DNA of 62,426 nt, counting the filler, from Sluysia triapertura (lineage: Eukaryota), in assembly GCA_046118255.1 (NCBI GenBank). It is 5 parts of 5 records of this genome, joined end to end, with 100 filler letters (N's around TTAATTAATTAA, not from the genome) between each part and the next. Parts side by side here need not be neighbours in the genome. Positions count along the whole stretch, not along the records: positions 15,698 to 27,013 come from JBJNIA010186057.1; positions 27,114 to 38,599 come from JBJNIA010184213.1; positions 38,700 to 50,225 come from JBJNIA010183712.1; 2 more parts are not named here. The stretch is one strand, 5' to 3'. Within the stretch, counting starts at the first letter, position 1. The number at the start of each line of letters is the position of its first letter. Below the pieces are notes generated by a model. That model did no database searches and had not been told where the DNA came from. It saw nothing but the letters and a program-made list of their open reading frames with translations. Position numbers and translations under genes: made by a program. Of the stretch, positions 16,591 through 50,222 are shown one piece after another.

Positions 16591-16749
16591 TCATCCAATC
16601 AGGCCTTTAAAAAAGATAGGTGAGTAAAATAGGTCCTGATTGGATGATGAACAATTCTGCTGCAAAAATAGTTACTACTGATGATTGGCCATCATCAGTG
16701 TTGACACATTAATGAGAATTGTGATACATTGTGTCAACACTGGTGATGG
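16591..16749. promoter_or_regulatory. Inverted CCAAT pair (CCAATCAG-N33-CTGATTGG) plus a second 20-bp inverted repeat
   Basis: TCATCCAATCAGG and CCTGATTGGATGA (16591-16647); CCATCATCAGTGTTGACACA and TGTGTCAACACTGGTGATGG (16689-16749, 19/20 match). Confidence 0.7.
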
Positions 16750-16884
16750 TAGCGACCAGATTTTGGCATTTATAAGTAATTAAGTAAAATAATTTAATTT
16801 GTACTTTATAAAATAATTTAATAATTGATAATAATAATAATAATAACAATATTGTTATTATTATTATTAAATAAAAGAAAATCG

Positions 16885-16950
16885 CATAAATGTCTTTTAA
16901 CTATATTTTACACGATCTTTTCTTTCTTCTATATCTTAATTCTAACATAT
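16885..16950. promoter_or_regulatory. Conserved upstream box of chimeric family (copy 2)
   Basis: CATAAATGTC...TTACACGATCTTT. Confidence 0.6.
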
Positions 16951-19900
16951 ACAAGACAAAATGAAATAAAGATCGCTGATATGTATGAAGGAGCAACGAT
17001 AACAGGGTACACAATGCTCGAGTTGCTGCTTCGTTTTATAAAATCAACTCTTTAGAGCTGTGTTAAATTCTTGAAGGATTTAAGTATGTTGGAATGAATT
17101 AGAATGTATTTTGAAATAACCATTGTATTGGTCTATAAATATATTGTGAGAAAAATAACTATTTGATTTGAAAACGCTGAGTTATTTTTTATTCAATTAC
17201 CAGATATAAATTGAAAATTTTAATTAACTCAAATATTACCTATTTTCTATGCTACCTAAAGTTACATAAATTTAAAATGTAATTTAACTTAAATATGAAC
17301 ATCATTTAAGGATAGCTTCTTGTCACATATTGTAGCATTTATTATTTTACAATGTTTATTATTCTTTTGTTTGTTTTGATCTATTGTTTACGTACTTTGA
17401 TTTGAAATTTATTATTATTATTAATTAATTAATTAATTAAATTAAAACAATTAATTATTTTTTGTTTTTAAAAAGCACTATTATGAAAATTGAAGAAGGC
17501 TGGATATCAAAAAGCAACCGTCTCGAATCAACTAAAAAGTATTGAGTCAGAAAAATCTGGAAATCTTGATGTTATTGCAGGCATACCGAATACCTTCGTA
17601 CCAAAATTTTTATTAAACATCAAATCAGTAATGGCAGATGCACCGTTTGATGAATTTCTAAGTTGTTGATTAAATGGCGTCTTAAGAATACAAATTATGT
17701 TTTTGAGAACGATTTTCTTGACTCCAAAAAACTGAGATGTTTGATAAATATTTATGTAGAAGATTTTATAGTAGAGCAATATGGATTTTTATCAACTATT
17801 AAGGAACAGATTGTGTTTAAATGATAGATACAAGTTCAAAAACTGTTTCATCTATAATGTTGCTGGAGTTCGTGATAGTCGTAAATTAGATGTTATGTTA
17901 TTGGAAGCATCTGCTCAATTACAATAGGACGATGAAGTTATTGTTATATTTTATAAAAGTATTAGCAAAGTTAGGTTTGTAATTGCCTGACTTCTCAGTA
18001 TTTTATTTTGGTTTTAAATGTTGATTTGAAATATTGAGTTGTTGCAACGGTAATTTTGAAAATGACAAATATCAACCAACTCCCTTCACGAGTTTCAGAA
18101 GAGAATGTGTTTCTGTTGCATAGTTCCGGTGATTTTTGTTTCAAAACTCTATTGTTAGTATACGACAATCACGTTATTATTAAAAGTGATCCACATAATA
18201 AAATATTGTTTATATGTTTTTGAATACAAATTCGAGCAATGAGTTTAATAATCTGTAATAGTGAATATACCAATTTGTTTATTTATTAATTAGTTTATCG
18301 TTCAATTGTACGTTCAGATATAAATGATAAATTTAAATTTAAACAACTTTTCAAGTAGCCTGAGTACCGTTATATATTACTTTGCGAAACTAGAGGATGT
18401 TTCCACGTCGAGATAAGCGCTCTCCAAACTCGTTAATCTTATTAACTTCTAAATTCGATCTACAGAAACATCTTTGTAGATGTTTTATGAAAGAATTATA
18501 ATGATCACTTGATGCGACAGCTCTTGGCTTCAAATGGTTGATTTTGTTGATAAATAAGAACATTTTGGAAAATTCATTGTTTAACTTTCCTTGTTAATCT
18601 ATATGTAGCATTCCTACAGGATTTTTGCTTTGTGATGCTAACAAAAAGTTAAGCCAATTATATCAATGATATATATATTTTTTGATGCTCTTATAATTCT
18701 TACGACTTTTTGTAAACTTAAATAATATGTTTGTAACTTCAAAATTTTAACACATTTTGTTATATACAATCATTCTTTTTATATAGCATGTACATTATTA
18801 AGTGGGAAACGAGTTAACACATTCTGCACATGGTATCGCTAGTGTGCAGGAGCCGAAACTCGGATGTAATTATAATAAATAAATTATTATAAGATAAAAA
18901 ACTGACAGATTAATTTTCAACTTGAATTAGGGTAAAATAGCCCGCATAGAATATTTTAACAAACAGTACACTTATACTTTTTCCTTTGGGTAATCTACGA
19001 CTTTTTATTTCATATATTTTTTATCAACTTAAAATACCGACACAATCTCGTTTAGTCTTAAATTCAAAATATATGTTGCTTATGGAAACTCCAAAGAGAT
19101 TTATTACAATAAATAAATAATGAAATGAACAATTTGGAATACAAAAATATAACTATTTCAATAAGCACTGCAAAGAAAAACCGTTATTTAATTTATACTG
19201 TCAAGAATATTTCCGTAGTTATAATATCGAGGTATGTATGTTTTTGATGAGTTTACAGATTTGTGCACATTGGTAATACTCTATAATTGTTTTTTTAATA
19301 ATTTTATGTTATTAGATGCAAAAATTATTTAGCAAAAAATGGTATTGAAAGGGTTAATATGTAAATATGAAGTTTTTAAAAAGATTTCGTAAGATACAAC
19401 AAAAATTTAATAAATATTGCAGTTAGATTTTAAGAATTGTATTAAATAGGCCAAAAATCGAGTTGTCAAAAATTCGAGCATTGGATGAGTTAATCGACTT
19501 TGAATTAAATTCAGTCTGAAATGCTAAAAGTGTGAACGAACATTATCAAATAATAACTATCAGATCTAGGATACCAAATATGAACGAATTTCATTACATA
19601 CAGATTTCAATATTGTTGAATTCTATTGTTGTACAATTATTTTGTTTTTCTGAGTGAAATCATTTTTCGAACACTTATATAACATTACAATATTATTATT
19701 GTAGTTATTAAATTACATTAATTAGCACATAAGTCTTATGCCCTTAGTATTTGAATGAAAGTATTTTTGGGCTGCAATGATCCACTTCAAAATTTATTAT
19801 TTATCAATAATAACAGTCAAAATTATCGAACACAATTAGTTTTCATTCTGTCACAAATTTTACACCTTTTCACCATACAAATCACACTTTTGTTCACATA

Positions 19901-21266
19901 TCTAAAACTTCTGTTACGAATTCTAAAAATTAAGATTAATGTCAAAAAATTACTAAAACAGTCAATTTCATTGAAATAGTTAAAATTAAAATACACAAAG
20001 AAGGTTGCATTTAACGTAAACATTTAAACAATAAAGTAATTATGACATTTTAGTTATTTTCATTTCTTCATTTAATAAACACATATTACTCCGTATCACT
20101 TTTACTCGGCGATTTCGAAAATTATTATTATTGTTATTACTATTATACAATATTATTGTTATACATTTATTGTTGCCTCATTCAATACTACCAATTTGAA
20201 GCTCTCTTTTCATTGTCAAGGTTTAAAAGTTAAAGGCATAGTAACATAAAAGTATTAAAATAAATATTTTTATATTTGTTTTAACGTAAAAAATACAAAG
20301 TAAATATAAGATAATATTAATTATTTTATATTTTATACATGTATTATTTGTCTTTAAGCTTATTTTTAATCATTTTTATTTTTTATTTAAAATTTTTTTC
20401 AAAATCTTTACATTAAACAGAAATAAAAATTTATGCGCCATATTAGATTTTACTTAAAATACAAAGAAACACAAAACATATAAGTCATTTAAGCATCACA
20501 TCAGTCCTTTCATTTAAAAGTCTGCATGATCACAATTCTGATTCAGAAAAAACTTAAAATATAATTATTCGCTATTCGGATTCAAAACATATTCAATTGG
20601 AACTTATTCGGTTAGCTAATCTTAATCTAATTTTAAAATCTATTTTAATATTAGAATACAAATTCTAATTCACTAATCGTTTATAGGTTTTTCTAATTAA
20701 TAATAATTAATTTTTGAATGTCATAATAAACTTTAGTAGAATTTTAGTTACAAGACTTGACCTCTTTGCAACTCGATGTTTTATTCGAATTTGAAATACG
20801 ATGTTACGAGATTTTTAATGATTGTTTATCATACTTATATCTTAAACAAAGTTTTTACGTAAAACTAGTCAATTTTACAACATACATTCTAGTTGTTTAT
20901 ATATTCATTCATTCACTCTCACCTTCTATTAAAATATAATAGTCGACGTATGTGTCATTATAATAAAATTAAGGTTATCTTTAAAGAAAAGTTAATATCA
21001 TTAAATAAGGAATTAAATTTGGGTAAACGAGTTGAATTAAAAATCAAATATGGCGCGAATTACAAGCACAGAATTGTAGGGTAAACAAAATAAATAAAAA
21101 TTTACTCAAGACTCCGAAAAACCACGTTAGCGTAAAGGTTAAATAAACAAATGTACTTAGTTTAATAGCATGTATACGGAAAGTCATAAAATGTCATTGG
21201 ATTATTTCTTTTCAAAATGAAATATGCAGAAATTATAACAGTACAATTTCATAATAAAAATATTAC

Positions 21267-23189: not shown

Positions 23190-23248
<59 letters not shown>
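23190..23248. repeat. (ATT)n microsatellite
   Basis: Perfect trinucleotide run. Confidence 0.95.
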
Positions 23249-23249
<1 letters not shown>

Positions 23250-23459
23250 TCTGTTGAAAAGTACAAACGATAAAAATGTTTTTTTCGAAACAGCAATTCG
23301 AAAGGAAAGATAATAAAAGTCGATGTACGTGCAAGATTGCAATATTTGGCTCTAAGAAATCCAGTGGATATGAATGAATTAGAAACCACCGTCAACACCA
23401 TCCATCACTACAAGCATGGTCATCGAATTAGAGAGGAAGAATATATATATATATATATT

Positions 23460-25380
23460 ATAGAGGAAAAACTATTAGGGTTAAAATGAGAAAAGGAAAA
23501 ACAGGAATAATAGAAATTTTTGAATTGTAACATCTGTGGGTGGAGAAATAAATATAATCGGAAAACTAAAATGTGAAATCACAGTAAAGTAAAAAACAAC
23601 TCTCCATACGACATAATTATATGAATGAATGTTAGGTGTAATTATTAATATTACACGAAAGCAAAATATTGGCTCCAAATGCACAAACAGTGATTACTGC
23701 TTCGGCTTCGTACAATGGAACATATCTTTACTATTCGAACCTTCAGCATACTTAATTTACTAGTAAACAATTTTATTACCATGAAGTATTAGTAACGTTA
23801 AACATCACGAATTACCAATTAAAATTTATAATACATGCGATTCAGTTAAATTATTTAAAAATCAAAAAATTCGAATGTTAGAACCAGTACCGGAAAATGA
23901 TACCATATGCACAGCCAAAGAGAAACCTCAAATTTATTTAAAGCGAGAATTTACCACGGAAGATTACGACAATTTATCTACGATACCAACACATAAATTA
24001 AAACAACTTGTAAATACCCACAGAGGTTATCGAAAAATCCATATGATACAGGAAGTGCTCCAGTAATCTAACATACAATTCCATTAAGTACGATTAAACC
24101 TATTAAATTATGTTCATATTCGATACCGTTTCATCATATCGAATAAATGAAAGCCAGAAACAAAAAACTGGAAAAAATGTGGAAAATGTTTTTTGTTCGA
24201 CAGAAGCACCAGTCACTTCTCCACGATGTCAGCACACAATGGTGTTATTATATATTCTGCGATCTTCGGAAATCACTTGAAAGAAATAGATGAAGTATTT
24301 TTCTGATTAGAAAATCGACAAAGTGAGAATGGACAAAAGAGAATGTTGTACTTTTAGGAGACATTTCATCTGATCAAAAAAGATAGAAAAGATTAAACTA
24401 TTTCCAACACCTACAAGCTTTTTCTCGGTTTAGTGAATTACAGAAAAATTATAAACAACTTCGTAACCATAGCAAAGCCGTTGAGCGAACTAATCGAAAA
24501 AGAATACAAATGCGTAAAAGAAAGATGTAAATTAAGTAAAAATTTCATACGAAATGATAAACATGAAAAAGAGTCAATTATTAAAAACACTCCTTTATGA
24601 TTTTATACTTATGACAAATGGAAGTGATTTTGCAATTGGTAGTAGTCCTAGGATAAAAAGATGTAATCTAATCGCTTATCAAATTCGCAGGTTAAACTCA
24701 TATGAAATGCGCTTTTCAGTAATTGAAAAGAAATACTTAGCGATTATCTATTCTCTAAAACATTTCAGACAATATTTACTAGGTCGTAAAAAACATTTAC
24801 ATACGAATATTTACATGAGGAAAATTAGAAATGTGATTGGAACCTAGAACTAGATGAATACGATGTCAAAATAGCTTATAGAATAGGAATGCTGATTTTA
24901 CGTCAAGACTAGAAAATGTTAACGAAAAAAGGAAAAATCAATACACAAGCACAAAGTTAATTGATCTTACTATAGATGGAAAGATAACAGACGAATTAGC
25001 TGCAAAATGGAAGTTAGAAAATAACTTATTAAAATATGTAACAAAGAAAGATTACGAACAGTTGTACCTGAATCAAGAAAAGTTATGAAGATAATTGGAA
25101 AAACATTAAAATGAATCAAACAAAAGTATTATTAAATAATGGAGCAATACAGGAGTTAAAAATAAAACACCTTTAAAACCTACGCCAGTGCCAACTGTCT
25201 CATGGAAATTACAGTAATGTGTATTCTAGATCCATTACCAACTACTCGTATGCTCGGATTACCAAACAAGATATCCAGCAACCTTCTCTATGCAAGACCA
25301 AAAAGTGGCACAACTATTTTAAAAAGAAATTACATATCGATAAAAAACGTATAAGAAATTTCACATAGATAGAGATAAAA
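23460..25380 (+). mobile_element. Decayed Ty3/Gypsy LTR retrotransposon pol
   Basis: RT connection (FLGLVNYRKIINNFVTIAKPLSEL), RNase H (FILMTNGSDFAIG...IAY...FSVIEKKYLAIIYSLKHFRQYLLGRK, WNLELDEYDVKIAYR) and integrase start (PLKPTPVP) occur in Gypsy order with many disruptions. Confidence 0.85.
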
Positions 25381-26966: not shown

Positions 26967-27013
26967 TGTATTTACAAACAATACCAGGATAGGTACACGA
27001 ATATTCATCCGTT

Positions 27014-28556: not shown

Positions 28557-29975
28557 TTATTGAGATGAATCTTCATATGCTTCATGAAACATTTTAGCTA
28601 TGGTAACCAAATCGATAGTACGTTCAGGATTCCGTGGAAAAGCTTTATAAATTTGTTGTTTGTCAAATTCTAATAAACTAAAGCTATATTTTAAACACAA
28701 ATCGTTCACTATGTCTGGTATTTTATCTAAATTTATATGTTTGTCATCTTCATTACTAATGTATTGGGCAAAAAAATCCGTTATTTTCATATCAAATTTC
28801 GTGGCTAATAATCTTAATCGATATAATGGACTAATATCGGATGTTATTCTTTCGATTAATCTAACACCAGTTAGTATTATTAAATCTGGAATTAGTTCCA
28901 CCAATCTTTTCGCTAAAACTTTAAAATCATCATTTACTTCTACACTTTCAAAATCCAAAATTTTAAATGGTGGATTTTTATGTTTCAAGCAAAAATTAAT
29001 CACTGAATAAGCACCAGCTGTTAAAATTGGATTTAAACCTAATCGTAAAATTTTTATCGCTTTACATTGATGTAGTTGCTTTGATAATGAAATTAAACAT
29101 TCAGTATTTATATGATTATTAACCAAGATTAATTCCTCTAAAGTTTCATTTGTTTTTAATACTTTACCAAAACCTTGTAAAGCCATTTTATTATAGAATG
29201 AATTATAAGATAAGTCCAATGTCTTTATTGACGTATTTTTACATAAACCTGTTATAAATTTACTCATAACCTTTTGATCCAATGTTCCAAGATTATTAAA
29301 ACTCAAATCTAAAAATTCAATACTACTAATCAAAGGTAAAATTTTACCAAAATTTAATAAAAAAGTACTGCCTAAATTATTATGAGACAAGTATAAATAT
29401 TTTAAATTAATTGATGTAGCCATTAAGTCACACAATGCTATTGAAGCGTTATCATTGAAGAGATTATGACTTAAATTTATTGTTATTATATTTGTACAAT
29501 TTGATAATGTTTCACTAAGATTTTGTGAACATACATGAGTTAATCGATTGTAAGTCAAATTTAATTCCGTTATATTATTATTAGAACGTAGCATTAATAA
29601 AAATGGAATAATACCGATGTCACCTAGACAATTATCAGTTAAATTAATTTTTGTTATTGTTTTATTATGCGTTAAACTTTCTGATAATGGTCGAATATCA
29701 ATTTCACCAAGTCCATAATGAGGTAATTCTAATCTATCAGATAAAATGTTACGGATGTATTTATTACATGGAATCACGTTATACTTTTTACATTTATTTA
29801 TATAATATGTCCTACCAGTACTATCATTATCTGGTAATTTGCTTTCATCTGTAAGTGATTGGATTAAAAATTCGGTAATGTCGATATCTGTCTCAACGTA
29901 TGATTCGTCACACGACGAGACATAAAAATTAACAGTACTATTAGATGATACCGAAATAGGTGTAAAGCTGTCCAT
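28557..29975 (-). CDS. LRRC74A: LRRC74-like RI-type leucine-rich repeat protein, intronless, 472 aa
   Basis: YINKCKKYNVIP...YIRN...LELPHYGLG...SLTHNKTITKINLTDNCLG matches the LRRC74 N-terminus, followed by about 8 LxLSxNxL repeats of roughly 28 aa; intact ORF. Confidence 0.85.
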   Translation of the reverse strand: MDSFTPISVSSNSTVNFYVSSCDESYVETDIDITEFLIQSLTDESKLPDNDSTGRTYYINKCKKYNVIPCNKYIRNILSDRLELPHYGLGEIDIRPLSESLTHNKTITKINLTDNCLGDIGIIPFLLMLRSNNNITELNLTYNRLTHVCSQNLSETLSNCTNIITINLSHNLFNDNASIALCDLMATSINLKYLYLSHNNLGSTFLLNFGKILPLISSIEFLDLSFNNLGTLDQKVMSKFITGLCKNTSIKTLDLSYNSFYNKMALQGFGKVLKTNETLEELILVNNHINTECLISLSKQLHQCKAIKILRLGLNPILTAGAYSVINFCLKHKNPPFKILDFESVEVNDDFKVLAKRLVELIPDLIILTGVRLIERITSDISPLYRLRLLATKFDMKITDFFAQYISNEDDKHINLDKIPDIVNDLCLKYSFSLLEFDKQQIYKAFPRNPERTIDLVTIAKMFHEAYEDSSQ

Positions 29976-31901: not shown

Positions 31902-34569
31902 ACCCTTGTCCTAAAAAGAAAATGATTTATTTTAGTTAATTGCTAAAGAAATGACTTTAGTTTCACTGTTATTCACTGATGAACTAAAGCAGCTTCCCTA
32001 CAATTAAAAAGTTTGCTAAATTGATTTATCTTGACGCTTTCCTATTCTCGCTTCTACTCTGTTCTAATTGCAAAAATGTAACTGCTTATATAGCAGTTTT
32101 ATGACAATTAGTGAAATTAAAAATCAGAAATCGAACAAGACGGAAATTAAAGCTGTTGATTTTCTTTTAATCGGCAATAGGCCGACTAATTTCACCGAAT
32201 AAACGTCGACAGCAATTTCCATCTGTGTTCAACTTCATTATTATTCCAATTATCTAAGGATAATGGGATTTGTGGCAAACAATCCCCTTATCTTCTTAAT
32301 ATCAAATAATTAAAATTTAAAATCACTGTTACATTTCTTTTATAATAATAACGCAATTTGTCAACTTAATTTAAAGATAAAATTTATTAAATAATAAATC
32401 AATTTCTCACGGGAGTATTCTACATTGAACCGTACGTTATATGTCAAGTTCAATAACATATTAGAATTAGTATCTTTATAAGAATTAATTTGATATATAA
32501 TTTATTAATACTTAATATTTAACTTTAATTTTAAATTATAAAAATTAATTAAAATAACTAATTTTGACGTTATCAACCTTAATGTGCTTCACAACACTTC
32601 ATCATTAAAATACTAATAAAACTCAATATTATACACTAAATCCAATATCATTTTATCATGAGCAAACATTTTTATTGAATTCTCAAACAAATTTAATTAA
32701 ATTAATTAACAAATGTACTTTGATGTTTTAACAAAGAAACTCTGTAAGGGATTATTTCTTCGTATTTCTCATTGTTTTATCTTGATTTAAGTATTTTATA
32801 TACTTATCTTACCATTACAGTTTATCACAATACCTCATCTTAATTTTTTTAGTAATGTTTAACTTATTCTGTTATCTTTAGTCTTGGCCCTTACATCTCC
32901 CTTTATTTTTCACCAATTCCAACATTATGGTTCCACTTAAAGTATGAAGTTTATTTTTATTATTTAAAATACGCACCTCTAAGATTCTTAATTGTGATAT
33001 ATTATACTTAATAATTTAGTCTTTAGAGTTGAGATAAGCTTATAAGATCGGTTATTTAATTCTTTTACATATTGACCTAGCTATAAGTTAATGTTCTATA
33101 GACTTAGTCCTCTATAGTTGATCAATTGGTATTTATTGGAAATAAACTTGATTCATTTCTTTAAATATTATAACAATTAAATGATTTTATGATTCTTCTT
33201 CTATGCGTTACTTAGTGTCAGTTAAGTATTCAACAATCAAAAAACTAAAGTTTATTACATGACACAAAAGTTTATTGATTATATACCAAACCACAAAATC
33301 AACACCTTTAATAAAATTATGTAATTAATGTACGACAACATTAGCAATATGCAAAACCATAAGATCAAAACCTTTTAAAAAATTCCAATCGAATTACATA
33401 ATAAATATATAATAATATTTGTCACAGTAGATTTGATTCTAGTGCCTTCACTTTATTATTTTAAAAGATGAGTTTGGCACTGGTCTTAAGCCAACGTAAA
33501 TTCAAATAACTTTAAAGTAAGATTTTATGCCTTACGTAAGTAAGGAATACTTAACACTAATGAACTTAAGAATGTTATTAAAGCGTATATGAATTTCTCA
33601 ATGATTCACGGAATAATCGAGATTTTATGTATTAATCGCACATAAATCCAACGTAAAAAAAACTGCGAACTTAATCTGTCAAATGTCGATGCCACTTATA
33701 AAATATTTGAAGAACGTGATCATGTATACGCGAAGATCCTACGCAAAAGTAGCGAAACAGATATGCCGAATGTATGTGCCGCGGAAAAAATAGCGATGCT
33801 AATAAACTTTTTCTATTGGATTATTGTTGTGATGTATGTAAAAATGTTTTAATTTATATTTTCTTTTAGATTAGTAGAACCATTATCATTATTTAATATT
33901 TATTTTAAAATCATAAATATTTACAATTATGTTATAAAATTTTTTGTAATTAAAAATGTATAATTATGTTACTCGCGTAACAATTTGATAAAAATAAGGT
34001 CCACTTTCGCAATTTAAACAGAAAAAAGATACGTTTATTAAAGATTTACATAATTTTAATAATTCTAAACAATTATTAAACAATTAAAACTGAAGCAGTC
34101 ATATAGTCCAAGCTAATTATATTAATTATTCTAAAGTTACAAAATTAAAGCTGTCACTAGAGTATGAAAAGAGATTATGCTATACAGGATATACTTAGCA
34201 TTATATTCGCGATATAAATTGGTGCCAGATAAACCTCCGTGATGCTGAAGATCCAGATCTTGGTCTGACAAATTCAACGAATGAAAGGTGCATTGATTTT
34301 TCTTTTGTTCAATTCGACTTTCTTGTTTTGAGTCCATATAAATCCTTAATGTCTTATTCGTCTTATTTGGTAGTTCATCCTATTAACGTACACGATAAAT
34401 TTCTCGGTTTTAGTATTAAAGCTCATAAATTAATAAATTCAACAATTTTAAATTTTATAAAATGGTCTTTGTTATAAATGTTCTAGAATGTTCTGCGTAA
34501 AATCACATAACAATACAATAAATATAAATAGTTATAAAGTACCTTAATAATAACATTAATTTATTCAAA

Positions 34570-38699: not shown

Positions 38700-38706
38700 T
38701 ATACCA

Positions 38707-38776
38707 TAAGCGCTTTTGAGTACTTTCGCGGTAGATATGAGCGCCATATAAATTAATATATTATTATTATTATTAT
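38707..38776 (+). mobile_element. 3' tail of L2-type LINE (or partner SINE) ending in (ATT)n
   Basis: TAAGCGCTTTTGAGTACTTTCGCGGTAGATATGAGCGCCATATAAAT is nearly identical to the reverse complement of 50391-50437. Confidence 0.75.
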
Positions 38777-41486
38777 CAAATTATTTGATACTTTAATTGA
38801 CTAATTCCTTTATTCGTTGTTTTAAATTTTCTACTGCTTTACAAAATAAATTAATTTTGAACTTGTAAAATTTTTTATGGAATTTCTTGTTGCTTTGCTA
38901 AACATACTTGATTTACAATCTCTATATTTTTTAAAAATACGTTTGATTAAAATTTACCTCGTTTCTATTTTTACTGCGCCTAATTTCATATACATTTGTA
39001 GAAAATGCCAAGGTACAACATAATTTTATTTATATTCGAGAGTTTTTTGGTATTTTGGTAGACAATTAAATTCATTTAACTTATGACGCAATAAAATGAA
39101 ATTATCAAATCAAAATTTAATTGATTACCTAATTTAATAATGACAGTATTAGTATTTAGTAAATTTAAAAATAAATTATTTAATTTATCTATATTGCACA
39201 TCCATTCGAAGCCAATGTGTGGTAATGGTTAACAATGTAATATTAACAACTTTCGCACAATGTTTGTCGTCAAAGGTTATTCCACCTCTTACACAAGTTT
39301 AATAAGAAACTAAACACATCGGAATCAGTTAAATCCAGTATAATAATCTTTGGATTTAATTCTGACTTTATTTATGGAAGTGTTTTTAGCCAAGAAATGT
39401 CTAATTTTAAGCACGCCATTGCATAGTTCTTGCTATATTATATTATTAATTCTTGTTATATTATAAGCCGTGTTATAATTGCAATTATTTCTACCAATAT
39501 TCTATTTTGGCGTTAATACTTTAATATATTCTAGTGCACAGGATATCCATAGCTATGTGATATGGAAAATACCGTTGGATTTATCAACACTATTGGAATA
39601 TACATCATTATGATAATCTAGTCAAATTTAGGTAAAGTACTTGGTAAAAGTTTTTAAGAATCGATAAATTTAACAGCGAAATTTTGAAGTTTAATATTAT
39701 ACGAAAAGAGTTCCTGGAAGTTCCAAACAAATGTATAAATGCGGAAATTTGGTTTACAAATGTAATATAAAACAACCATAATAACAAATTATATGATCAA
39801 GCAACAATATGAAATAATAAGGCCAAATTTGAAGTGGACATTGTAACAAATACTAAAATACCAAAACAAAATAATATTACTATAATTAAAGCAGAACAAC
39901 ACAAGTAAAGAATAAATAAATAAATGTCATAATGCAAAACAAAAAATACTATATAACAATGCAAGTTGAAATTCAATTTGTTAATTGAAAGTATACTTTG
40001 CGAAGTGCAATCGAAGAAGATATATTAATTTGACATAAACTAAACATATCTGTTATATTTAGTTTATTTAATTAGTTATATTTAATATATTTAGTTTAGA
40101 ATCCTTTCAAGTCTGTATATATTGTTAAAGTACAAATAAACGAATAAAATAATAACAATTATTATTATGTTATACTATATAGCATTACATTATATTAAAT
40201 TAAATATAGGTTGATTCCTTATAAAACATTTATAATTTTGTTAATAGAACTTAATTTTAGTAAATGTTTATTACGACAATTCTCCACGTAAAAAGCAATA
40301 AATATTGCGTTTTAGCCCAAAAAATTTAAAGTTGAAGAAACAGAAACTTCAACTGATAAACTAATCTTGCAATTATCAATTAACACTAGTAAAAGTTCAA
40401 TATTCGTAACCACTAAAAGAATTTTGAACTGTTATTAATAAAAAACAATATTAAATAATGAACTAATTTTAATATAATGTTAATAAACAAAGGGTGTCGC
40501 AACCAAAGAAATACAAATTAAGTTTCCGATAAAAATGAAAAGAAGATTCTCCGAAATTATTTAATCATACAAATTAGAAGGAAGATAAATAACAACAACA
40601 AAATAGTAGTGAGTCTTCCCAAAAAAGGTTAATTTAATTTTAGTAATAAAATGATTAAAATAACAAAAATGAAGATTTTAATTAATTAATTAAATTTCAG
40701 ACTTAATTTTTAGGTTTTATTAAGGTATTTAAAATTGTTGGATTCTTTATGAGTTACTCATGTTTTCTAGATGTTTTCACTTTCACCAATATGATTCTGT
40801 TTTCTACACCATTATGTTAATTATTATTAATTATTAAATTTGTTTTTATTATTAAATTTATCTTTAATGTAAGTAACAATAATTTAACTTCTCAAATATT
40901 TTGAAAATTTCAAATACTTTATAAGGTTACTTGAAGGTCTCAAATGCTTATCAATGTTTCAGACATTCTTAAAGGTTGATGAAGTCCTAAATAGTCTCAA
41001 AGTTCTCAAGTTCAATGGTACTTTAACCGGTATCAAGCTTCATCAAGGGTATCAACATCTTATAAAGATTTTGGGAACTTCAAGGTATTCTTCAATTCTC
41101 AAAATGGTCATAGATGTTTTCATGTTCGTCAATCACACTCCAATTATATTTCATTATGCTTTATCATTTTTATTAATTATTTCTACATCTTTCAATTCCA
41201 CATCTTTATTCATCTCCCATTTGGCTGCTGGGCAATCCAAATGTATCTCATTCTCGAGGAAAAGGTCTGACATCATACATCCTAATTAATAAAAAATAAA
41301 ATGACCACTACACGATAAAAATTCAGATACCATCAATCCAAGAACTTACTGTTACATGCAGAAATTGAAATGAATAATAAATCAACAATCAAGTTTAGCT
41401 CGTCCTCCCAAAAGATATTCTAACACGCCTTTCCTTAAAGAATTACTTTGGTTATTGATAAAATCATTGATTCCAAAATTATAACT

Positions 41487-41580
41487 TTAGACTTCAAAAA
41501 ATGAACTGACCGGTAATCCAACCCGGAACCTCTCGCTTCACAGCTGTAGTTCGATGCTCTGACCACTGAGCTATCAAACA
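41487..41580 (-). mobile_element. tRNA-derived SINE / tRNA pseudogene (copy 1)
   Basis: A box TAGCTCAGTGGTCAGAGC, degenerate B box GGTTGGATTACC, and a non-tRNA tail (TGAAGTCTAA) shared with 46734-46818. Confidence 0.75.
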
Positions 41581-41944
41581 ATTTTAGATTATTATAGTCA
41601 ATTATACTATCATTATTCTAAATGGAACTTTAGGCCTTTAACACAACATAATAATCATTTATAGAACTTATATTATGTCTCTTGGAGATAAACAAAAATT
41701 TGGAAACAAAAATGAATGCCAGAAAAACAAGAATTTGAACAAAATTAGCTGCGTGACAGGTTATGTACCGTTTGTTTCAAAAAACATATAAATTACGGAA
41801 ATATTATATATTTAAGAAAAAGGCAATGCTTTTTCTGAATCAGAAATATTATACTGAATGATTTATTTTAAGTACTGATTTTCTATTAAGTATTATAGGT
41901 CGGTTTTTAATTGTTCCAATTATTATTGTTACTACTTTGACATT

Positions 41945-42944: not shown

Positions 42945-43008
42945 ATATGTAAGAAAAACAAGACATATCAGAAAGATCGTGTAATTAATAGAATTGAAGA
43001 TCTTTATG
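42945..43008. promoter_or_regulatory. Conserved upstream box of chimeric family (copy 3)
   Basis: Reverse complement CATAAAGATCTT...TTACACGATCTTTCT. Confidence 0.6.
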
Positions 43009-43148
43009 TATTACATTTCACTTAATAACAATAATAACAACAATAATTCATCACTTCTGGTACTGTTGTTGTTATTATTGCTATTTTAATTGTTATTATT
43101 ATTCTAATTATTACAAATTCTATATTATTATATACCTTAATCTTACCA

Positions 43149-43149
<1 letters not shown>

Positions 43150-43206
<57 letters not shown>
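43150..43206. repeat. (ATT)n microsatellite within a degenerate trinucleotide tract (43020-43250)
   Basis: Perfect run flanked by imperfect triplets. Confidence 0.95.
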
Positions 43207-43208
<2 letters not shown>

Positions 43209-43317
43209 TTAGCATTACTATTATTATTACATCATATTAATAATTATTCATCAAACAAATTAAATTCTTATTACATAATCTAAACAAAGCACCACAACAC
43301 AAGTGTGATTTACATCA

Positions 43318-43367
43318 CCCAATCAGATAATCTCTGCATCGTCACGGCAATAACGAATCTGATTGGG
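43318..43367. promoter_or_regulatory. Inverted CCAAT pair (CCAATCAG-N32-CTGATTGG)
   Basis: CCCAATCAGA...TCTGATTGGG about 300 nt upstream of the ATG at 43661. Confidence 0.7.
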
Positions 43368-43660
43368 CAGAGAGAATTCATTACAACTAATGACACATTT
43401 CTTTGTATTCGAATACAATTACTCAGACAATAATTATTCATAAAAATAGTATCAAGAAAATGAACACACAAAACAGACTAGAATAATCAGCAGCCAATTA
43501 ATTGCACACAATTCGTAATAAATCAATTCAGCCATTGTTAAAAAGTACACTATTAATCACTCAATTTTAAAAATCAAATTCTTATTCAGCCATAATTATT
43601 TTTAAAAACAGACAGGTGATAAAAATTAGACAGACATAGATTAAAAAAGACAATTAAAAA

Positions 43661-45280
43661 ATGAATTCAGAACATAGAAAAGACTTCCTATTATCGTGTT
43701 ATCAAGACATTACTAAAAGCTTGAACAATGTTTACGAAGACAAGTTGTCTATACGTAAAAAAGAGATAACTTCCATGTCTTCACCAAATTTATTTACAGA
43801 ATTTTATTCTCAATTGGCACAAATTAAAGTTTATCATAAACGTAATCCCGATGGAAATAAATCATTATCGTTATTAGAGTCATTGTCATTATTAGAATAC
43901 GATAATTTTAATAATATACGCGAAAACGTTGAAGGAGCTGGTGCACTAGTTTTTGAGTCTACTGATGAAGAGAATCATATTCGATTTTTAGATTTACGCG
44001 AATTTAATCAACTAAGTGTTGATCGGAAAGTATCACACTTTGACTGTGTTATGTACTTGCTTAAACTTAATAAGCTCTATGAGATTCCTAAAGACAAGAA
44101 GAATGTTTTACGCTATTATTATTTATTAAAGTTGACAGAACATCCAGATGATTGTATTGCTCGTTCTAAACATACGATAAAATTAGTAAATGCCGATTAT
44201 GTTATTAGTGAAGAATTAGATGATGCTGCCGATGATGTTGTTAGTGGAGAATTAGATGATGCTGCCGATGATATTATTAGTGAAGAATTAGATGATGCTG
44301 CCGATGACGTCGTTAGTGAAGAATTAGATGATACTGCCGATGATGTTGTTAGTGAAGAATTAGACGATGTTACCGATGATGCTGTTAAAGAAGAATTGGA
44401 TTCATACCAATCACCAAGTGTTTACCGAATCTTAGATAAAGTCGCTGATGATGTTCCCGATGATGTTGTCAAAGATAACCATGATGCATTAGACCAGTTG
44501 CTACTCTACATCCTTTCAAGCAGAAACAAATGTACTCGGACAGTATTTCTCATGTCTGCCTCCAATTCGATAAAGATACAGCGTAACGATATGTTTAACA
44601 TTTTTAAATACAACACGTCTGGAGACTTTGAAGGTAATAAATTAATGCTGAATTTTAACTTATATTTTGTTCACAATTATAATTTTTATATTAATTATTG
44701 TAGAATCTGCAATTCATCATGTAACGAAGATGGACCCATAAACGAAGAAACACTGTATATCATCAAATCATTAACTGTGTGTATAAACTTAAATAAAATT
44801 AAAATTTTAATAAATTCTTTTGTTAACAGTCTTAGATTTAATTTTAGTTATAATATGACAAATTACGACAAATTCAATAACAAAGAAAAGTGCAATTATA
44901 TTAAACCCAGTTATATCACAACCGGGATAGACTATAAAATAAACAATGATCAAACTCGTAAAGGTGTTAACTCATATAAAAAGGAAAATTCTTATAAGAT
45001 CACTCTAGAGGTTAAACATAGCTTTAATATAGGAAGTCTTGAATATGATATTTGCAAAGTTGTAGTAAATTGTACACAACACAAGACATATCTTAAATAC
45101 GATGACATAGTTATTTCAGATAATCTTACGTGCCGCAAGGTTACAAATAGCTTAATTCTATTACAATCAAAGATTAAAATACCCAAATCATTTAACTTTA
45201 ATCATATTAATTTACAACCATGTACTCACAAGCCCTCCATAATTTGGTTAATTAACATTAAATTAATCGAACATTTCTAA
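43661..45280 (+). CDS. SF3A3: Intact chimeric protein (539 aa): SF3A3/Prp9 fragment + acidic 12-aa repeats + lineage-specific tail
   Basis: MNSEHR...YEDKLSIRKKEITSMSSPNLFTEFYSQLAQIKVYHKRNP...TDEENHIRFLDL...LYEIPKDKKN resembles SF3A3 INSDHR...YDDKDGLRKEELNAISGPNEFAEFYNRLKQIKEFHRKHP...TDEEGYGRYLDL...LFDIPKERKN. Homology covers only about the first 175 aa, so this is a derived copy rather than the ortholog. Confidence 0.85.
   Translation: MNSEHRKDFLLSCYQDITKSLNNVYEDKLSIRKKEITSMSSPNLFTEFYSQLAQIKVYHKRNPDGNKSLSLLESLSLLEYDNFNNIRENVEGAGALVFESTDEENHIRFLDLREFNQLSVDRKVSHFDCVMYLLKLNKLYEIPKDKKNVLRYYYLLKLTEHPDDCIARSKHTIKLVNADYVISEELDDAADDVVSGELDDAADDIISEELDDAADDVVSEELDDTADDVVSEELDDVTDDAVKEELDSYQSPSVYRILDKVADDVPDDVVKDNHDALDQLLLYILSSRNKCTRTVFLMSASNSIKIQRNDMFNIFKYNTSGDFEGNKLMLNFNLYFVHNYNFYINYCRICNSSCNEDGPINEETLYIIKSLTVCINLNKIKILINSFVNSLRFNFSYNMTNYDKFNNKEKCNYIKPSYITTGIDYKINNDQTRKGVNSYKKENSYKITLEVKHSFNIGSLEYDICKVVVNCTQHKTYLKYDDIVISDNLTCRKVTNSLILLQSKIKIPKSFNFNHINLQPCTHKPSIIWLINIKLIEHF
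44192..44407 (+). repeat. 36-bp coding tandem repeat x6 (ADDVVSEELDDA)
   Basis: GCCGATGATGTTGTTAGTGAAGAATTAGATGATGCT units. Confidence 0.95.
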
Positions 45281-46138
45281 AAACATTTTTAAATTAAATG
45301 TCGTTTCTTTCAATAAATTATATAGAATTTACCTTGTACCTTTTTCATCTTATTGATTGTATTAATAAACTTTCTTTACTGTTAAAAGAACATATCCATT
45401 TGAGTGTAGAAAGAAATTGTGAATGTAAATAAAAAATCAAAAACTCGTTGACAGTTTCATTTCTTACATCAGAGATGAGAAAATCTCTGATTTCCAAATA
45501 TAATCAATAAAGAAAAATTAAAAGTAGTAAAAATGTAAAAAATCAAAGTAGTTTTATAATTTTATCGAACTAGTTGAAATATTATAAAACAAACTACAGA
45601 TAAGTTATCATTACATTTACAATAATTCGTTACTTAACTTATGCAGATAAGTCACGAAATTGAATAATTTACATATGTATATCCTATTTTTTAACCATAA
45701 TAATTTTGGGTTATTATTATGGTGACGAGGAACGCAAGAGCATAACTCATAGTATAAAAATAAAATAAGGAATTAAGATGAAACAATAGGATGAATTGCG
45801 ATAACAAAATATTTAAATCAAAATAAAAGAATGAAAGATACGAAGAAAGAACCATTTATAATATTAAAGTACGTTTGTTAATTAATTTAAGCAAAAATTA
45901 ATTTGCTTAATTTGATAATTTAGTGAAAAATGTTTGCTCAATGCTAAATTTAATTAGTAACGTAAAATTCAGTTTAAGTATAATTATGATACCCATAATG
46001 TATACTCATTTAATATAATTAATTATATTCATGAGGATATCAACTTTAATATGTTATTGTAATCGACGTGCGACAAACGGTTGACGCATAAAAGATTTCT
46101 ATAGAAAATAAATTTGGTATTTGATTAGTTTTATGTAG

Positions 46139-46216
<78 letters not shown>
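46139..46216. repeat. (ATT)n microsatellite
   Basis: Perfect trinucleotide run. Confidence 0.95.
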
Positions 46217-46733
46217 GTGTTGTTGCTATATCGTATTATATTATTTTATATTAAATTATATATTGTTTTGTATTGCATTATATTATATTACTTACTGCAT
46301 GATCGATTTTTATGAAAATTGCGAACGAAAACTAATACATTATGGCAAATTTCAACTATATTGTTTAATATTTTTTTGAATTCGATTAATCACAGAATTC
46401 ACTTGTTATATTTTTAGGATTCTTTAAACTTCTATATTCTTATTTCAATTGTTTGGACATCAATTTGTTTATCCAATTTAATTTCTGTATTTAGATCTAT
46501 GAGTTAAATTTATTAGAGCATTATCTACATTAATACTTTCACTCGTTTCGTTATTCCATTTGTTTATAAAATTAAAAACAATTTTTGCTGTTTCACATTT
46601 AAAAAATTGACGTTTGACTTTATCTTAGTTTGGCCATCTTAGGCTAGTCGACTAAATAACGTTTTGTTGGGGTAAAAAGGTCTAAAGTGCCATTTGGTAA
46701 AATTGACTATAATACAATAAAAGTGTTAGACGA

Positions 46734-46818
46734 GGGTGATAGCTCATTGATAGAGCATCGAACTGCGCAATGAGAGTTTCGGATTCGATCCCCGGTCAGT
46801 CCATTTTATGAAGTCTAA
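46734..46818 (+). mobile_element. tRNA-derived SINE / tRNA pseudogene (copy 2)
   Basis: GGGTGATAGCTCATTGATAGAGCATCGAACTGC...GGATTCGATCCCCGGTCAGTCCA plus the shared tail; acceptor stem pairs poorly. Confidence 0.75.
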
Positions 46819-48478
46819 CAGCTTCATATGCACTGATTATTATTCTACTATGTGGTGGTTCAACTCAATTGTTTGAAATATTGTTTCACATAAATAATTA
46901 ACGACCACACCTAAGTCACTTAATATATTTAATATCAATATTTACAAGCTCTAAAATTATTTTAAAAATGAAATTTCTATAACGCAACTGCAAATTCTCT
47001 TAATTTTCTACCACTCCTTTTGTCACACTTACGTGTTCCCAACCTTCTCTCTTTTTGCTTTTCTAACTTATTTCTTTTACAGTCCCCTTACATGATCACA
47101 AGTTGTTCCATATCTTACACATAATTCTACATCTCTCTACACTAAACACGATTTCACGAATACTTTCCCTACGGATAATGATAATCCGTAGATTATTCAA
47201 ATAAAAAACGTGTATCAATCATTCAAGATCTCAATCACAGATTTTTGAGTAAAATTTTGAGTAAATTTTATTAATTTTAATTGTAAATTATTTTATAAAT
47301 TGTAAATTTTGGTATTAAATATTCCTTTATATTATTATTGCCTTATATTAAGTTTGCTTCTTGTTAATACACTTAATAAACTACGATGCCTATTTAGTGT
47401 AACTAAAATTCCAAGATAATATTTTGATTTTAAATTTAATTTTTGAGAAATATAAGTATTATATAAGTGTAAGTGTAAGTGTACACTTAAAAGATTTTAA
47501 AAGATTTAGTTATAATACATAATACATAAATAGTTATTTGCAAAAAAATTTTTATTTTTTATTTAACCATCATCTTTCTTAGTTTATACCTTATCATCAA
47601 ATAACTTCGCTTTTCAACCTCAAATAATTTTACCTGCTTTAAAAATTGAAACTAATTCAAATAGACTGATTATAAGTGAATAAATTTGTTGCATTTTCAA
47701 TAATAGTTTTGTACATTTTGACTTTGAATTACATTAATATTCCAATTTAATATTACAACTTCAAAAAATTAAATTAAGTTTGATCGTTATCTTTATTAAG
47801 ATTTGTTAATTTTTAAACAATTTCATTTACAATTTCTCAATTAGCATCACCCATTATATAATAAATTATGTAATCAATTTAAGATTAGTTTCATTTTTTG
47901 GATTATTTAAACAAAGTAAAAAAACTTTTCAAAAAATATATTTAACAAAACATTTAAAATATGCTTTTTTTACCTTTATTTTTAAAATTTTGCATTTTGA
48001 TCATCAGGACATATATCTTCGTGATAATATGAACAATTTCAATTGTATTTTATTTTTCTTTTACAATCCATTGATTTGGACATCTTATCATTTATTTAAA
48101 TTCAATTAATGGTTACGCATTGATTTGTGTTTATCTTTTAATAAGTGTATTTGACATTTTGATTCAATCATAAAATTAAAAAATTTAGGTTTAAATAAGC
48201 TCAATCACTAATATGAATAATAATATTTATGTGACTGTTAAATTTAACAATAAACAGTGAAATGTAGAATTATAATACATATTTCATATTTTAAGCACCG
48301 TCAAACAAAGTCACGTAAAACTTGCGAAATATGTATAATTAACTTGACTGTCACGGAATTGTATAAATTGACTTGAATATTTTTGAAAAAATGAAATAGA
48401 TTTAATATATTTACTACTTAATTTTCATTTGGTACTAAATATATTAACAAAGAATTGGCATGTAGAATACATTGAATT

Positions 48479-49859
48479 TCAATCAGATATACAATATCCA
48501 AAAATTTTTATCAGTGTTATGGGGTTGAGGTTAATGTTTATTTGTTGTGTGTGCATCACCAAGTTTATTTCGACAGGTGAACGTTTCATAATTTTGGGTA
48601 TATTAATAAGTCTGCCTACGCCGAGTATACTTTTAATGTTGATCGCGGTTGTCAGTTTGTAACTTAATGAGTTGATTCTACCTTTCTTGTTATATGTTTT
48701 GACTACGGCTTTGCTCATGTAAGTATTATGAATGATTTTGTCAAACCTTCGGCAATAGTTTGCTCTGGTAGACGTTTCCCTTACTTTAACATTATCGACT
48801 GTTGATTCATTAATTAGATTAATTTGTGAAGGTGAATTATTACAAACGAATGAATGTGGCGAAACATATATTAATCCTTTACATCTTAATAGAGAACAAA
48901 TTCTGTTTCTAAAATCATAAACGTTTACTGATTCCTTACATTTTGTAAAAAAAAGAATTCGAATTTCAAAATTGTGAACATTTATTAATTCTTTACATAT
49001 TAAAAAAAAACTATTTGTACTTTCGAAATTATGAACATTCATTGATGCTGTACATTTTATTAGGAAGCGAAAGCTAATTTTAAAGTTCCACTTCCGCTGA
49101 TTTTCGGTCTCCTTGAATCCCAGTTGACAGATTGGTGTTGATCTAAGATATAAATAGTAAAATATAATATGATCATCGTATATATTTATATAATCAAGGA
49201 TAAAATGATTACTTATTGCTAATTGGAATGCTTCGTCATATTTAGAGCTGGACTCGTGGTGGAAGATAGAATTGATTGCATCTCCGTGAAACAGCTTGGG
49301 CGGAACTTGAAATACTAAAATGAGTTCGTCGCCGTGCATCATCTTCGAACGAATCTCGGATGCTAAATCAAATTGTACATCGTTCGCTTGAGCAAAAACA
49401 TGACTGTACGCGTCGTACGCTAAATTGATTGGGTCGTCATGTATTGACTTGATTGGATCGTATTTAAATCGCTCATACTTTACATCATATTTACCGGCTT
49501 GAACAAAAACATGACCGTACGCGTCGTACGCTAAATTGATTGCCTCATCATGCATTAACTTGATTGAATCGTATTTAAATCGCTCATACTTTACATCATA
49601 TTTACCGGCTTGAACAAAAACATGACCGTACGCGTCGTACGCTANNNNNNNNNNNNNNNNNNNNNNNNNNNNNNNNNNNNNNNNNNNNNNNNNNNNNNNN
49701 NNNNNNNNNNNNNNNNNNNNNNNNNNNNNNNNNNNNNNNNNNNNAATTGATTGCCTCATCATGCATTAACTTGATTGTTTTCTTGGTTTCGCAATAGATG
49801 CTATTATTTATCTTTATTTTCCTTATCTGATTTTTTAGTTTGCTGTTCTTGATTGCCAA
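48479..49859 (-). CDS. Repeat-containing protein of the chimeric family, no recognisable captured domain
   Basis: Long open frame across the assembly gap, with 37-aa repeats, 19-aa NVHNFE repeats and a C-terminal region resembling the tail of the SF3A3 chimera. Start uncertain. Confidence 0.65.
49390..49776 (-). repeat. 111-bp coding tandem repeat (at least 3 copies, collapsed at 100-N gap 49645-49744)
   Basis: GTACGCGTCGTACGCTA recurs at 49406, 49517 and 49628. Confidence 0.95.
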
Positions 49860-49972
49860 ATTTCTTATTTTTAATCGTATAATGCTGAATTATTGAAAAA
49901 ACCGAATGATGATTGTCAAATTTCTTATTTTTAATCGTATAATGCCGAATTATTGAAAAACCGAGTGATGGT
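49852..49972. repeat. About 60-bp tandem duplication
   Basis: CAAATTTCTTATTTTTAATCGTATAATGCYGAATTATTGAAAAA occurs twice. Confidence 0.9.
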
Positions 49973-50174
49973 TGAATTGTTTTTTATTGTTTTACGAAAT
50001 GTCTGAAAATTCGTTCTTGAAACGCCTGCAACAATTATTTGTATTTTCTTTTTGTGTCTGCCAAAATAATTATTAATTTTTTAAAACAAAATGGCCGTCT
50101 AAATTTTATTTTTTGCTTGTCTACTTACTAATCTGTCTGATTAGTTAATTTGTGTTAGTTTGATTTTAGCACAA

Positions 50175-50222
50175 CCAATCAGCTTAGTTATCATTAAAAC
50201 GGCTAGTATTGATTCTGATTGG
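50175..50222. promoter_or_regulatory. Inverted CCAAT pair (CCAATCAG-N32-CTGATTGG)
   Basis: CCAATCAG at 50175-50182 and CTGATTGG at 50215-50222, upstream of the minus-strand ORF. Confidence 0.7.

Follow-up and report, generated by a model that had tools for sequence, protein, structure and literature searches.

Introduction

Paired CCAAT boxes at a fixed distance have been described in several settings. In the CCAAT arrays of G2/M cell-cycle promoters the boxes stand 33 bp apart (PMC9448500), and human NF-Y peaks were found to contain a double-CCAAT class with a 43-bp distance and no known partner (PMC4889920); the words 'strand' and 'orientation' are absent from the main text of the latter report, in which the orientation of this class is not stated. 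Such boxes may also be carried by repeats. It was shown previously that 40% of the NF-Y sites in K562 cells overlap LTRs (PMC3730095), the LTR-linked CCAAT class having boxes 19 bp apart (PMC4889920), and a CAG immediately 3′ of CCAAT has been called optimal for NF-Y (PMC12065363).

Other repeats spread motif pairs or capture genes. CERP2 and CELE2, the MITE-derived germline promoters of Caenorhabditis, have dispersed a pair of motifs with a fixed spacing of 12-16 or 23-28 bp (PMC9757741). In LTR-mediated retrocopies (PMC5131818) and Pack-TIRs (PMC8277862), partial copies of host genes are fused behind a mobile head and re-amplified. DINE-1/HINE elements, which are non-autonomous Helentrons, combine inverted repeats, a microsatellite and occasional gene capture, and their inverted repeats sit 3-22 bp from the subterminal repeat, at the very end of the element (PMC4067079).

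Here, we describe an inverted CCAAT pair (dyad) found at three sites in a stretch of 62,426 nucleotides from Sluysia triapertura (the window). The window consists of contigs joined by N44-TTAATTAATTAA-N44 linkers at 15598, 27014, 38600 and 50226, which place site 1 on a different contig from sites 2 and 3. The source genome is AT-rich, animal and of invertebrate type.

Results

The original prediction of an inverted pair, CCAATCAG-N33-CTGATTGG at site 1 and with an N32 spacer at sites 2 and 3, proved to be exact (Table 1). These are the three dyad matches in the window, and a number of at least three was reached by none of 100 dinucleotide shuffles. On the plus strand, all three copies of CCAATCAG and all three of CTGATTGG are paired, against 0.32 of each expected in the window, and CCAATCAG is the only 8-mer there with at least three inverted pairs at a matched spacing of 10-100. 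No further CCAATCAG arm was present on either strand of the whole window. It was also correctly noted that the spacers differ while arms and length are conserved: the arms are identical at all three sites, the length is 32-33, and the spacers agree at 7-13 of 32 positions, the chance level for their composition. At site 1 the perfect arms reach 13 bp, and at site 2 they reach 11 bp. The distance between the middle bases of the boxes is 44 bp at site 1 and 43 bp at site 2 and at site 3, which has the same geometry as site 2; this corresponds to about four helical turns and not to the roughly three that had been proposed. In a viral control, at least 121 IMG/VR loci had spacers spread over 20-45; among the matches listed, the commonest length was 24 (27 loci, 10 of them distinct), and 32-33 accounted for 9 of 121. 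Thus, the 32-33 geometry is no general viral motif.

Table 1. Positions in the window of the dyads, their heads and the sequences that they face
Feature	Position	Strand	Description
Fourth-head cargo	100..345	-	cyclin C residues 1-80, then stop; E 1e-13
Fourth, decayed head	683..968	-	block word 957-968; inverted repeat 744-800; degenerate CCAAT arm 683-692; second arm unrecognisable
Site 1 cargo	15706..16485	-	decayed, putative phosphodiesterase (PDE) GAF-like fragment; two in-frame TAA stops; 51-bp tandem repeat at end
Site 1 dyad	16595..16643		CCAATCAG-N33-CTGATTGG; perfect 13-bp arms 16591-16647
Second inverted repeat, site 1 head	16688..16750		precedes the dyad when read toward the cargo; DNA hairpin of -20.9 kcal/mol predicted
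Shared upstream block word AAAGATCGTGTA, site 1 head	16909..16920	-	head comparison
Shared upstream block word AAAGATCGTGTA, site 2 head	42972..42983	+	head comparison
(TTA)n tract, site 2	43072..43229		between block and dyad
Site 2 dyad	43319..43366		N32; conserved island 43311-43371 in paralogous contigs, run X1
Site 2 leader	43367..43660	+	4 CAGAC words in 294 nt; 0.08 expected
ORF A	43661..45280	+	539 aa; SF3A3 (SF3a60) piece, 36-bp acidic tandem repeat, orphan C-terminal half
ORF B	48479..49762	-	111-bp and 57-bp tandem repeats; 100-N gap; orphan repeat ORF
Site 3 leader	49881..50174	-	3 CAGAC words in 294 nt; runs into 60-bp duplication
Site 3 dyad	50175..50222		N32; contig end 3 nt away

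Read-depth mapping covered site 2, which is represented by many divergent copies in sequencing run X1, possibly the source of the window itself. Twenty-two contigs of this run lie over 43275-43450, and their summed depth, which is not equal to copy number, was 1495-1795 over the dyad, 57-857 over 43275-43310 and 115-283 from 43377 onward; the unique-DNA depth was about 18-20 (a 656-nt contig without differences). The dyad stands out as a 60-bp conserved island among paralogous contigs, with no indel listed. Depth is multi-copy on both sides of it and through ORF A to about 45250, and falls to the unique level at 45252-45736. Run X2 provided 29 low-depth contigs, none of them on the dyad bins. 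The dyad variant table of X1 lists only changes at least 31 nt from an aligned end, so that it favours the spacer and gives no clean test of arms against spacer; in the sole contig reporting both arms, 1 of 16 arm bases and 3 of 32 spacer bases differ.

One could propose that the arms owe their conservation to a folded RNA or single-stranded DNA hairpin and not to a role as double-stranded binding sites. Pairing is predicted for each of the three dyads, the stems measuring 8-13 bp or more, and the neighbouring inverted repeat varies symmetrically, both of its arms changing together between site 1 and the fourth, cyclin C head. However, a stem requires pairing and not a fixed word, and the same 8-mer recurs at three sites while the sequence of the adjacent hairpin has changed. 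The single arm change listed (43326 G>C, in one contig, depth 102 of 1582) leaves CCAAT intact, and no matching change is listed at 43359; being uncompensated, this one case fits binding sites rather than a paired stem. With no match at the gathering score in an Rfam search either, we find a hairpin function quite improbable.

Similarity between the sites extends beyond the dyad. Among 1171 tiles from the rest of the window, the one most similar to the upstream head of site 1 was the site 2 head (64.4), followed by the cyclin C head (54.9), both in cargo orientation; the best tile from other regions scored 41.8 (mean 21.7, sd 5.0). Each of these heads holds one copy of the word AAAGATCRTGTA, which was picked after the alignment had been seen; its total of three compares with 0.13 expected and was reached in none of 100 shuffles. 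Of 846 tiles, just two carry at least three CAGAC on one strand, and these are the site 2 and site 3 leaders; alignment of the two over their whole length was not significant (62 of 300 shuffles). The heads have a common order of block, AT-rich tract, inverted repeat where kept, dyad, leader and cargo, and the shared sequence extends 270-340 nt upstream of the dyad. Pairwise arm tests were marginal (site 2 versus site 1, 3 of 200 shuffles; site 2 versus cyclin C, 4 of 200; site 1 versus cyclin C, 19 of 200), by the hairpin-to-arm stretch alone the cyclin C head scored no higher than unrelated tiles, and nhmmer gave no significant match between any pair of the six upstream regions. The element's far end and a copying enzyme were not found.

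The dyads had been placed 150-320 nt upstream of three unrelated ORFs. Measured to the first ATG, this distance holds for site 1 (157 nt, minus strand) and site 2 (294 nt) but not for site 3 (408-412 nt, minus strand). The ORFs are indeed without mutual relation; the site flanks, on the other hand, are related. Judged from these comparisons of sequence, the sites belong to the heads of a single dispersed repeat family, which face captured pieces of genes, and are not independent promoters.

Among the cargoes, ORF A matched SF3A3 over residues about 37-200 (E 2e-20). Its first 165 residues as query gave one SF3A3 match, the whole ORF as query found no homologue, and against 80 representatives the best stretches all lay inside residues 1-249, with none in the C-terminal half. 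The SF3A3 part runs for 169 codons without a break and the cyclin C piece for 80. The host-gene origin of these two cargoes is shown at the level of protein homology. A PDE origin of the site 1 cargo has weaker support: all six matches up to E 1 are PDE5/PDE6 chains, the best at E 0.008. Reassignment of stop codons in the PDE frame was considered and dropped, because frames of 472 and 539 codons run without TAA; a putative plus-strand 49-nt exon across the left arm of site 1 found no protein support. Homologue searches with ORF B found none.

Could the dyad have served as promoter for an ordinary multigene family of the host, which grew through segmental or tandem duplication and received retrocopies, the head itself not being mobile? 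No transposase, terminal repeat or second arm was found, although additional cargoes, or a transposase in decayed form, may have escaped notice, and ORF A is open over 539 codons, with a modest synonymous excess (14 of 30 changes within the ORF, out of 40 listed from 373, against 29% expected, p 0.027) and no stops. Such a family is nevertheless difficult to reconcile with different cargoes standing behind related heads on three contigs, all of them head-first, and no host gene common to these cargoes was found. We consider this explanation unlikely; the synonymous excess in ORF A also speaks for the cassette reading discussed below.

A different problem is posed by decay. At site 1 a perfect dyad is kept ahead of a cargo with two stops, which counts against a promoter, and in the fourth head the dyad is largely lost ahead of the cyclin C fragment. 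With stops in 2 of 4 cargoes and one head decayed, the dyad might be taken for a functionless remnant of some old non-coding repeat, lying head to head with pseudogenes by chance. Yet all 16 arm bases are unchanged at each of the three loci despite randomised spacers, and both parts of the site 2 cassette, head and cargo, are multi-copy, which makes a relic extremely unlikely.

Discussion

The dyad is a conserved inverted CCAAT pair in the head of a dispersed multi-copy cassette. We think it fairly probable that it acts there as an internal promoter, to which two NF-Y trimers would probably bind and which would drive a captured host-gene fragment. A selected, symmetric protein-binding site of promoter type, as originally predicted, is supported by identical arms at three homologous loci, chance-level spacers, the kept length and the conservation island; the binding part is predicted. 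All six arms read CCAATCAG, with CCAAT cores and the favourable 3′ flank. The NF-Y consensus prefers purines just 5′ of CCAAT. Position -2 is a purine in 6 of 6 arms and position -1 in only one, a pyrimidine occupying it in the other five, and this departure from the consensus counts against NF-Y.

The pyrimidine 5′ flank would be of no concern if the dyad were the recognition site of an enzyme by which the element itself is mobilised or recombined (a dimer of a transposase, Rep or recombinase), its likeness to CCAAT being coincidental. Inverted symmetry with a fixed span, arms extending to 11-13 bp, the adjoining second inverted repeat, in which the site 1 and cyclin C heads differ in both arms at once, and the frequent end of matching of paralogous contigs at 43371 all agree with such a site. 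The dyad is internal, however, with shared sequence reaching 270-340 nt further upstream and multi-copy depth on both sides, unlike the inverted repeats at the very end of DINE-1 (PMC4067079). Moreover, the conserved word is the full CCAATCAG, and the spacing is one known for NF-Y pairs. An enzyme site thus seems rather improbable to us.

If the dyad is an NF-Y promoter, its relation to the described pairs can be specified. The proposed analogy to tandem cell-cycle CCAAT boxes 32-33 bp apart is not supported, because the boxes here are inverted and 43-44 bp apart; a pair at fixed distance is what they share with the G2/M arrays. With the 43-bp double-CCAAT class they share the middle-to-middle distance (44 bp at site 1). 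That class, however, comes from human ChIP data and its orientation is unstated in the main text (PMC4889920), whereas the present boxes are inverted, repeat-borne and in an AT-rich invertebrate-type genome, with binding only predicted. A literature search found no report of a CCAAT pair 43 bp apart in opposite orientation. LTR12, MLT1 and other LTR promoters resemble the dyad in being portable and repeat-borne, with multiple CCAAT boxes and the CAG 3′ flank (PMC3730095, PMC12065363), but their class has the 19-bp distance, and a second LTR was not found here.

Among mobile elements, CERP2/CELE2 carry another motif, bound by HIM-17, and land as MITEs beside host genes (PMC9757741), whereas here the head faces copied fragments and no MITE-like terminal repeats surround the dyad. 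In LTR-mediated retrocopies and Pack-TIRs, element sequence flanks the cargo on both sides; at site 2 the depth is unique after 45250, and downstream of ORF A, at this one locus, neither an inverted nor a direct copy of the head was present. DINE-1/HINE differ in having terminal inverted repeats 3-22 bp apart, the dyad being internal with a 32-33-nt spacer. No report linking flatworm, captured gene fragments, chimeric genes and CCAAT was found in the literature search. Both ingredients, repeat-borne CCAAT promoters and gene capture, have been described in other systems; the dyad belongs to a cassette system and is not a separate discovery.

In the proposed mechanism, two NF-Y trimers would bind the inverted boxes in the cassette head, and transcription would pass from the dyad through the short leader into the captured fragment. 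Selection for protein binding, presumably of NF-Y, may have kept the arms; the cargoes may have been acquired from mRNA, and transcription from the head may favour spread or survival of the copies. A more far-reaching version, which we put forward only tentatively and regard as doubtful, is an undescribed one-armed mobile element that has a convergent twin-NF-Y promoter with the 43-bp spacing, unexplained in the human data, gathers pieces of housekeeping-gene mRNA behind this promoter and multiplies them into hundreds of translated chimeric genes.

New gene copies usually arrive without a promoter. A repeat able to provide one and to gather fragments of host genes behind it would be a route to new chimeric genes, and the SF3A3 piece joined to an orphan half may represent one such frame, open and present in many divergent copies. 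Should NF-Y binding prove true, the natural variants, with their fixed inverted geometry of 43-44 bp, would make the partner-less 43-bp NF-Y class testable. Should the one-armed element prove true as well, it would be a promoter-first gene factory and provide a natural series for the 43-bp NF-Y geometry.

Geometry of the inverted CCAAT pairs

The three dyads, inverted pairs of CCAAT boxes made of two 8-mer arms and a spacer, were present as the original prediction had placed them, and none of 100 shuffles reached three or more matches. CCAATCAG and CTGATTGG each occur three times on the plus strand of the window (25% GC; 0.32 expected of each), always paired, and no other 8-mer of the window gave three dyads at matched spacing. 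The geometry is fixed: the middle bases of the two boxes are 43-44 bp, about four helical turns, apart. Compared with one another, the spacers share the base at 7-13 of 32 positions. Since the arms are identical across loci with randomised spacers, they may represent a double-strand binding site under selection. That the dyad is an inert relic seems extremely improbable next to such constancy. The inverted arms could also be read as a hairpin, which we consider quite improbable; a comparison with Rfam yielded no match at the gathering score. Recognition by an enzyme, for which the symmetric arms would be the target, is somewhat less remote, albeit unlikely. Viral contigs displayed no peak at the 32-33 spacing, which was seen in 9 of the 121 loci listed.

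NF-Y prefers a purine at position -1, immediately 5' of CCAAT, and this preference is unmatched in five of the six arms, which have a pyrimidine there. On the 3' side all six arms carry the CAG flank, termed optimal for NF-Y in the available text of PMC12065363. Double boxes in human NF-Y peaks fall into classes of 19, 24-27/36 and 43 bp; the last class, close to the 43-44 bp of our dyads, has no known partner, and its box orientation is not stated in the main text (PMC4889920). The proposed likeness to cell-cycle promoters proved to be a coincidence of measure, because the 33 bp of the available part of PMC9448500 is the distance between boxes, whereas the earlier figure of 32-33 was the gap between 8-mers; at 43-44 bp the dyads fall outside the G2/M arrays. 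Nor does dyad symmetry alone prove a bidirectional promoter, because NF-Y can function in either orientation, also in bidirectional promoters (PMC1802594, in part). Planarian NF-YB is referenced in the accessible part of PMC11802806.

Linkers of the form N44-TTAATTAATTAA-N44 (100 nt) join contigs at 15598, 27014, 38600 and 50226; the three complete contigs measure 11.3-11.5 kb each, so that two contigs joined by a linker probably have nothing to do with each other. One contig carries site 1 and another sites 2 and 3, its end truncating the site 3 region 3 nt past the dyad. Cadherin, formin and leucine-rich-repeat genes are also present in the window and indicate an animal genome.

Features in the window, with their coordinates
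Feature	Position	Strand	Remark
Site 1 dyad	16595-16643		spacer N33
Site 2 dyad	43319-43366		spacer N32
Site 3 dyad	50175-50222		spacer N32
ORF A	43661-45280		539 aa; cargo of site 2
Possible 49-nt exon	16572-16626	+	splice-like signals; covers left arm of site 1
GT-AG stretch, ~65 nt	16487-16551	-	site 1 leader, toward PDE piece
G-rich word GGTGTAGTGG	42359
G-rich word GGTGGTGG	1367	-
G-rich word GGTGTGTGGTGG	11948	-
PP2A B55 N-terminal piece	10083-10331	-	decayed; E 2e-6
CCAAT box and ATC-type microsatellite	10518-10524, 10538-10742		upstream of PP2A B55 piece
Short ORF	54710-55099	+	weak CCCH zinc-finger match (zf-CCCH_UNK, E 0.029)
Leucine-rich-repeat ORF	28557-29975	-	472 aa, unbroken
Very high-depth short repeat	45737-45930		summed depth in run X1 up to 83,000; relative at 32652-32797
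80-bp repeat	38707-38785, 50357-50437		91% identical; adjoins (TAA)n at starts of two contigs
120-bp repeat	41487-41607, 46697-46818		inverted copies, 73% identical; presumably tRNA-derived
LTR-retrotransposon pol-like pieces	~23800-25300	+	broken; by eye from translations

Related heads before different cargoes

Each dyad belongs to a head (upstream block, AT-rich tract, an inverted repeat where kept, dyad and leader, the contig end leaving the last two at site 3) that faces, in one orientation, a different cargo, that is, an ORF or gene piece. The 330-nt head of site 1, cargo-oriented and scored against 1171 tiles (mean 21.7, sd 5.0), found the site 2 head first (64.4) and second (54.9) a decayed head preceding a cyclin C fragment (E 1e-13), the best tile outside related heads scoring 41.8. 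AAAGATCRTGTA, picked post hoc from the alignment, occurs three times in the window (0.13 expected), once in each of these three heads; with two mismatches permitted, a longer version was not above chance. Three or more CAGAC on one strand were found in 2 of 846 tiles, only at sites 2 and 3. In a three-way alignment, the site 1 and cyclin C heads are collinear through the inverted repeat, both arms of which change together from one copy to the other, and on to one CCAAT arm; the partner of that arm is not recognisable in the cyclin C head. Three results speak against kinship: testing the arms in pairs gave marginal outcomes (3, 4 and 19 of 200 shuffles), the leaders of sites 2 and 3, aligned over their full length, scored no better than shuffled sequence (62/300), and nhmmer gave no significant cross-match between upstream regions. 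The three sites belong to one family, an old one of patchy homology.

Three cargoes have similar G-rich words 1.0-1.6 kb upstream, which may be outer ends of the cassette arm; at site 2 the sequence after the word has a strong C-over-G skew. The PP2A B55 locus is cassette-like; its upstream region beat 200 of 200 shuffles against the site 2 arm and is absent from the top tiles for the site 1 head. The CCCH ORF has no perfect dyad upstream; downstream, at 55757, lies a 3-mismatch dyad with a 34-nt spacer. The leucine-rich-repeat ORF has a single CCAATCAA 80 nt upstream (30055), and head homology was not found there.

The ORFs faced by the dyads were, as predicted, mutually unrelated when compared with one another. 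The predicted distance of 150-320 nt, taken to the first ATG, held for sites 1 (157 nt) and 2 (294 nt) and was exceeded at site 3 (408-412 nt). Part of ORF A, which contains a 36-bp acidic repeat, corresponds to SF3A3 residues 37-200 (E 2e-20); its C-terminal half had no match among 1.84 billion protein representatives. The minus-strand cargo of site 1 is a PDE GAF-like piece whose frame is broken by two stops; all six of its matches are PDE5/6 chains (best E 0.008). ORF B, the cargo of site 3, carries 111-bp and 57-bp repeats, and sequence searches found no homologue.

Amplification at site 2

Contigs of run X1 were compared with 43215-46120, at site 2 only (1576 contigs). Of the sampled words, a share of 0.57 is present in this run, from which the window itself may derive. 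Depth was 420-6616 over 43215-45251 against 19-35 in the bins of 45252-45736 (one exception at 229; a 656-nt identical contig there had depth 17.8), and therefore the head, the SF3A3 piece and the orphan half are all multi-copy. Copies of the head with ORF A number, on a loose reading of depth, in the order of tens to hundreds, summed depth not being copy number. That the dyad is the promoter of a host gene family which expanded through segmental duplication we hold to be unlikely, on a par with the enzyme site.

Over the dyad, 22 contigs gave depth 1495-1795, falling to 115-283 past 43377, and no indels were listed. The listed changes comprise nine spacer changes and one arm change, a count that is biased because only differences at least 31 nt from an aligned end were included. 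In the sole contig reporting both arms, 1 of 16 arm bases and 3 of 32 spacer bases are changed; copies of the site 2 subfamily thus have a spacer passed on by descent rather than a random one. The 30 changes evaluated in ORF A (out of 373 rows) included 14 synonymous ones, where 29% would be expected (p 0.027), and no new stop. In one paralogous contig 49 nt of ORF A (43828-43878) are replaced by 13 nt, an in-frame net loss of 12 codons; another combines +1 at 43957 with -1 at 43963.

Proposed function

Word and spacing suggest that two NF-Y trimers would sit on the dyad about four turns apart, and that transcripts would begin within the leader and continue into the cargo. Because their frames are unbroken, the cargoes may have been captured from mRNA, in the manner of LTR-mediated retroposition (PMC5131818, in part). 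Taken together, an NF-Y-type promoter site in the head of a gene-capturing repeat, driving transcription into mRNA-derived cargo, is the reading we consider probable. Modes of working similar to the proposed one are described in the available text on NF-Y-rich LTR promoters (PMC3730095) and on Caenorhabditis motif pairs that are carried by MITEs and serve as promoters (PMC9757741). The features of the cassette do not fit DINE-1/HINE (PMC4067079, in part) nor, at the single locus of ORF A, Pack-TIRs (PMC8277862, in part) or LTR-flanked retrocopies; X1 depth and nhmmer revealed no second arm downstream of ORF A. We found no report of such a gene-capturing element or of an inverted 43-bp CCAAT pair in literature that covers few subscription journals. 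The dyad is real and under apparent constraint, and is best read as a putative promoter inside a dispersed repeat that captures pieces of genes.
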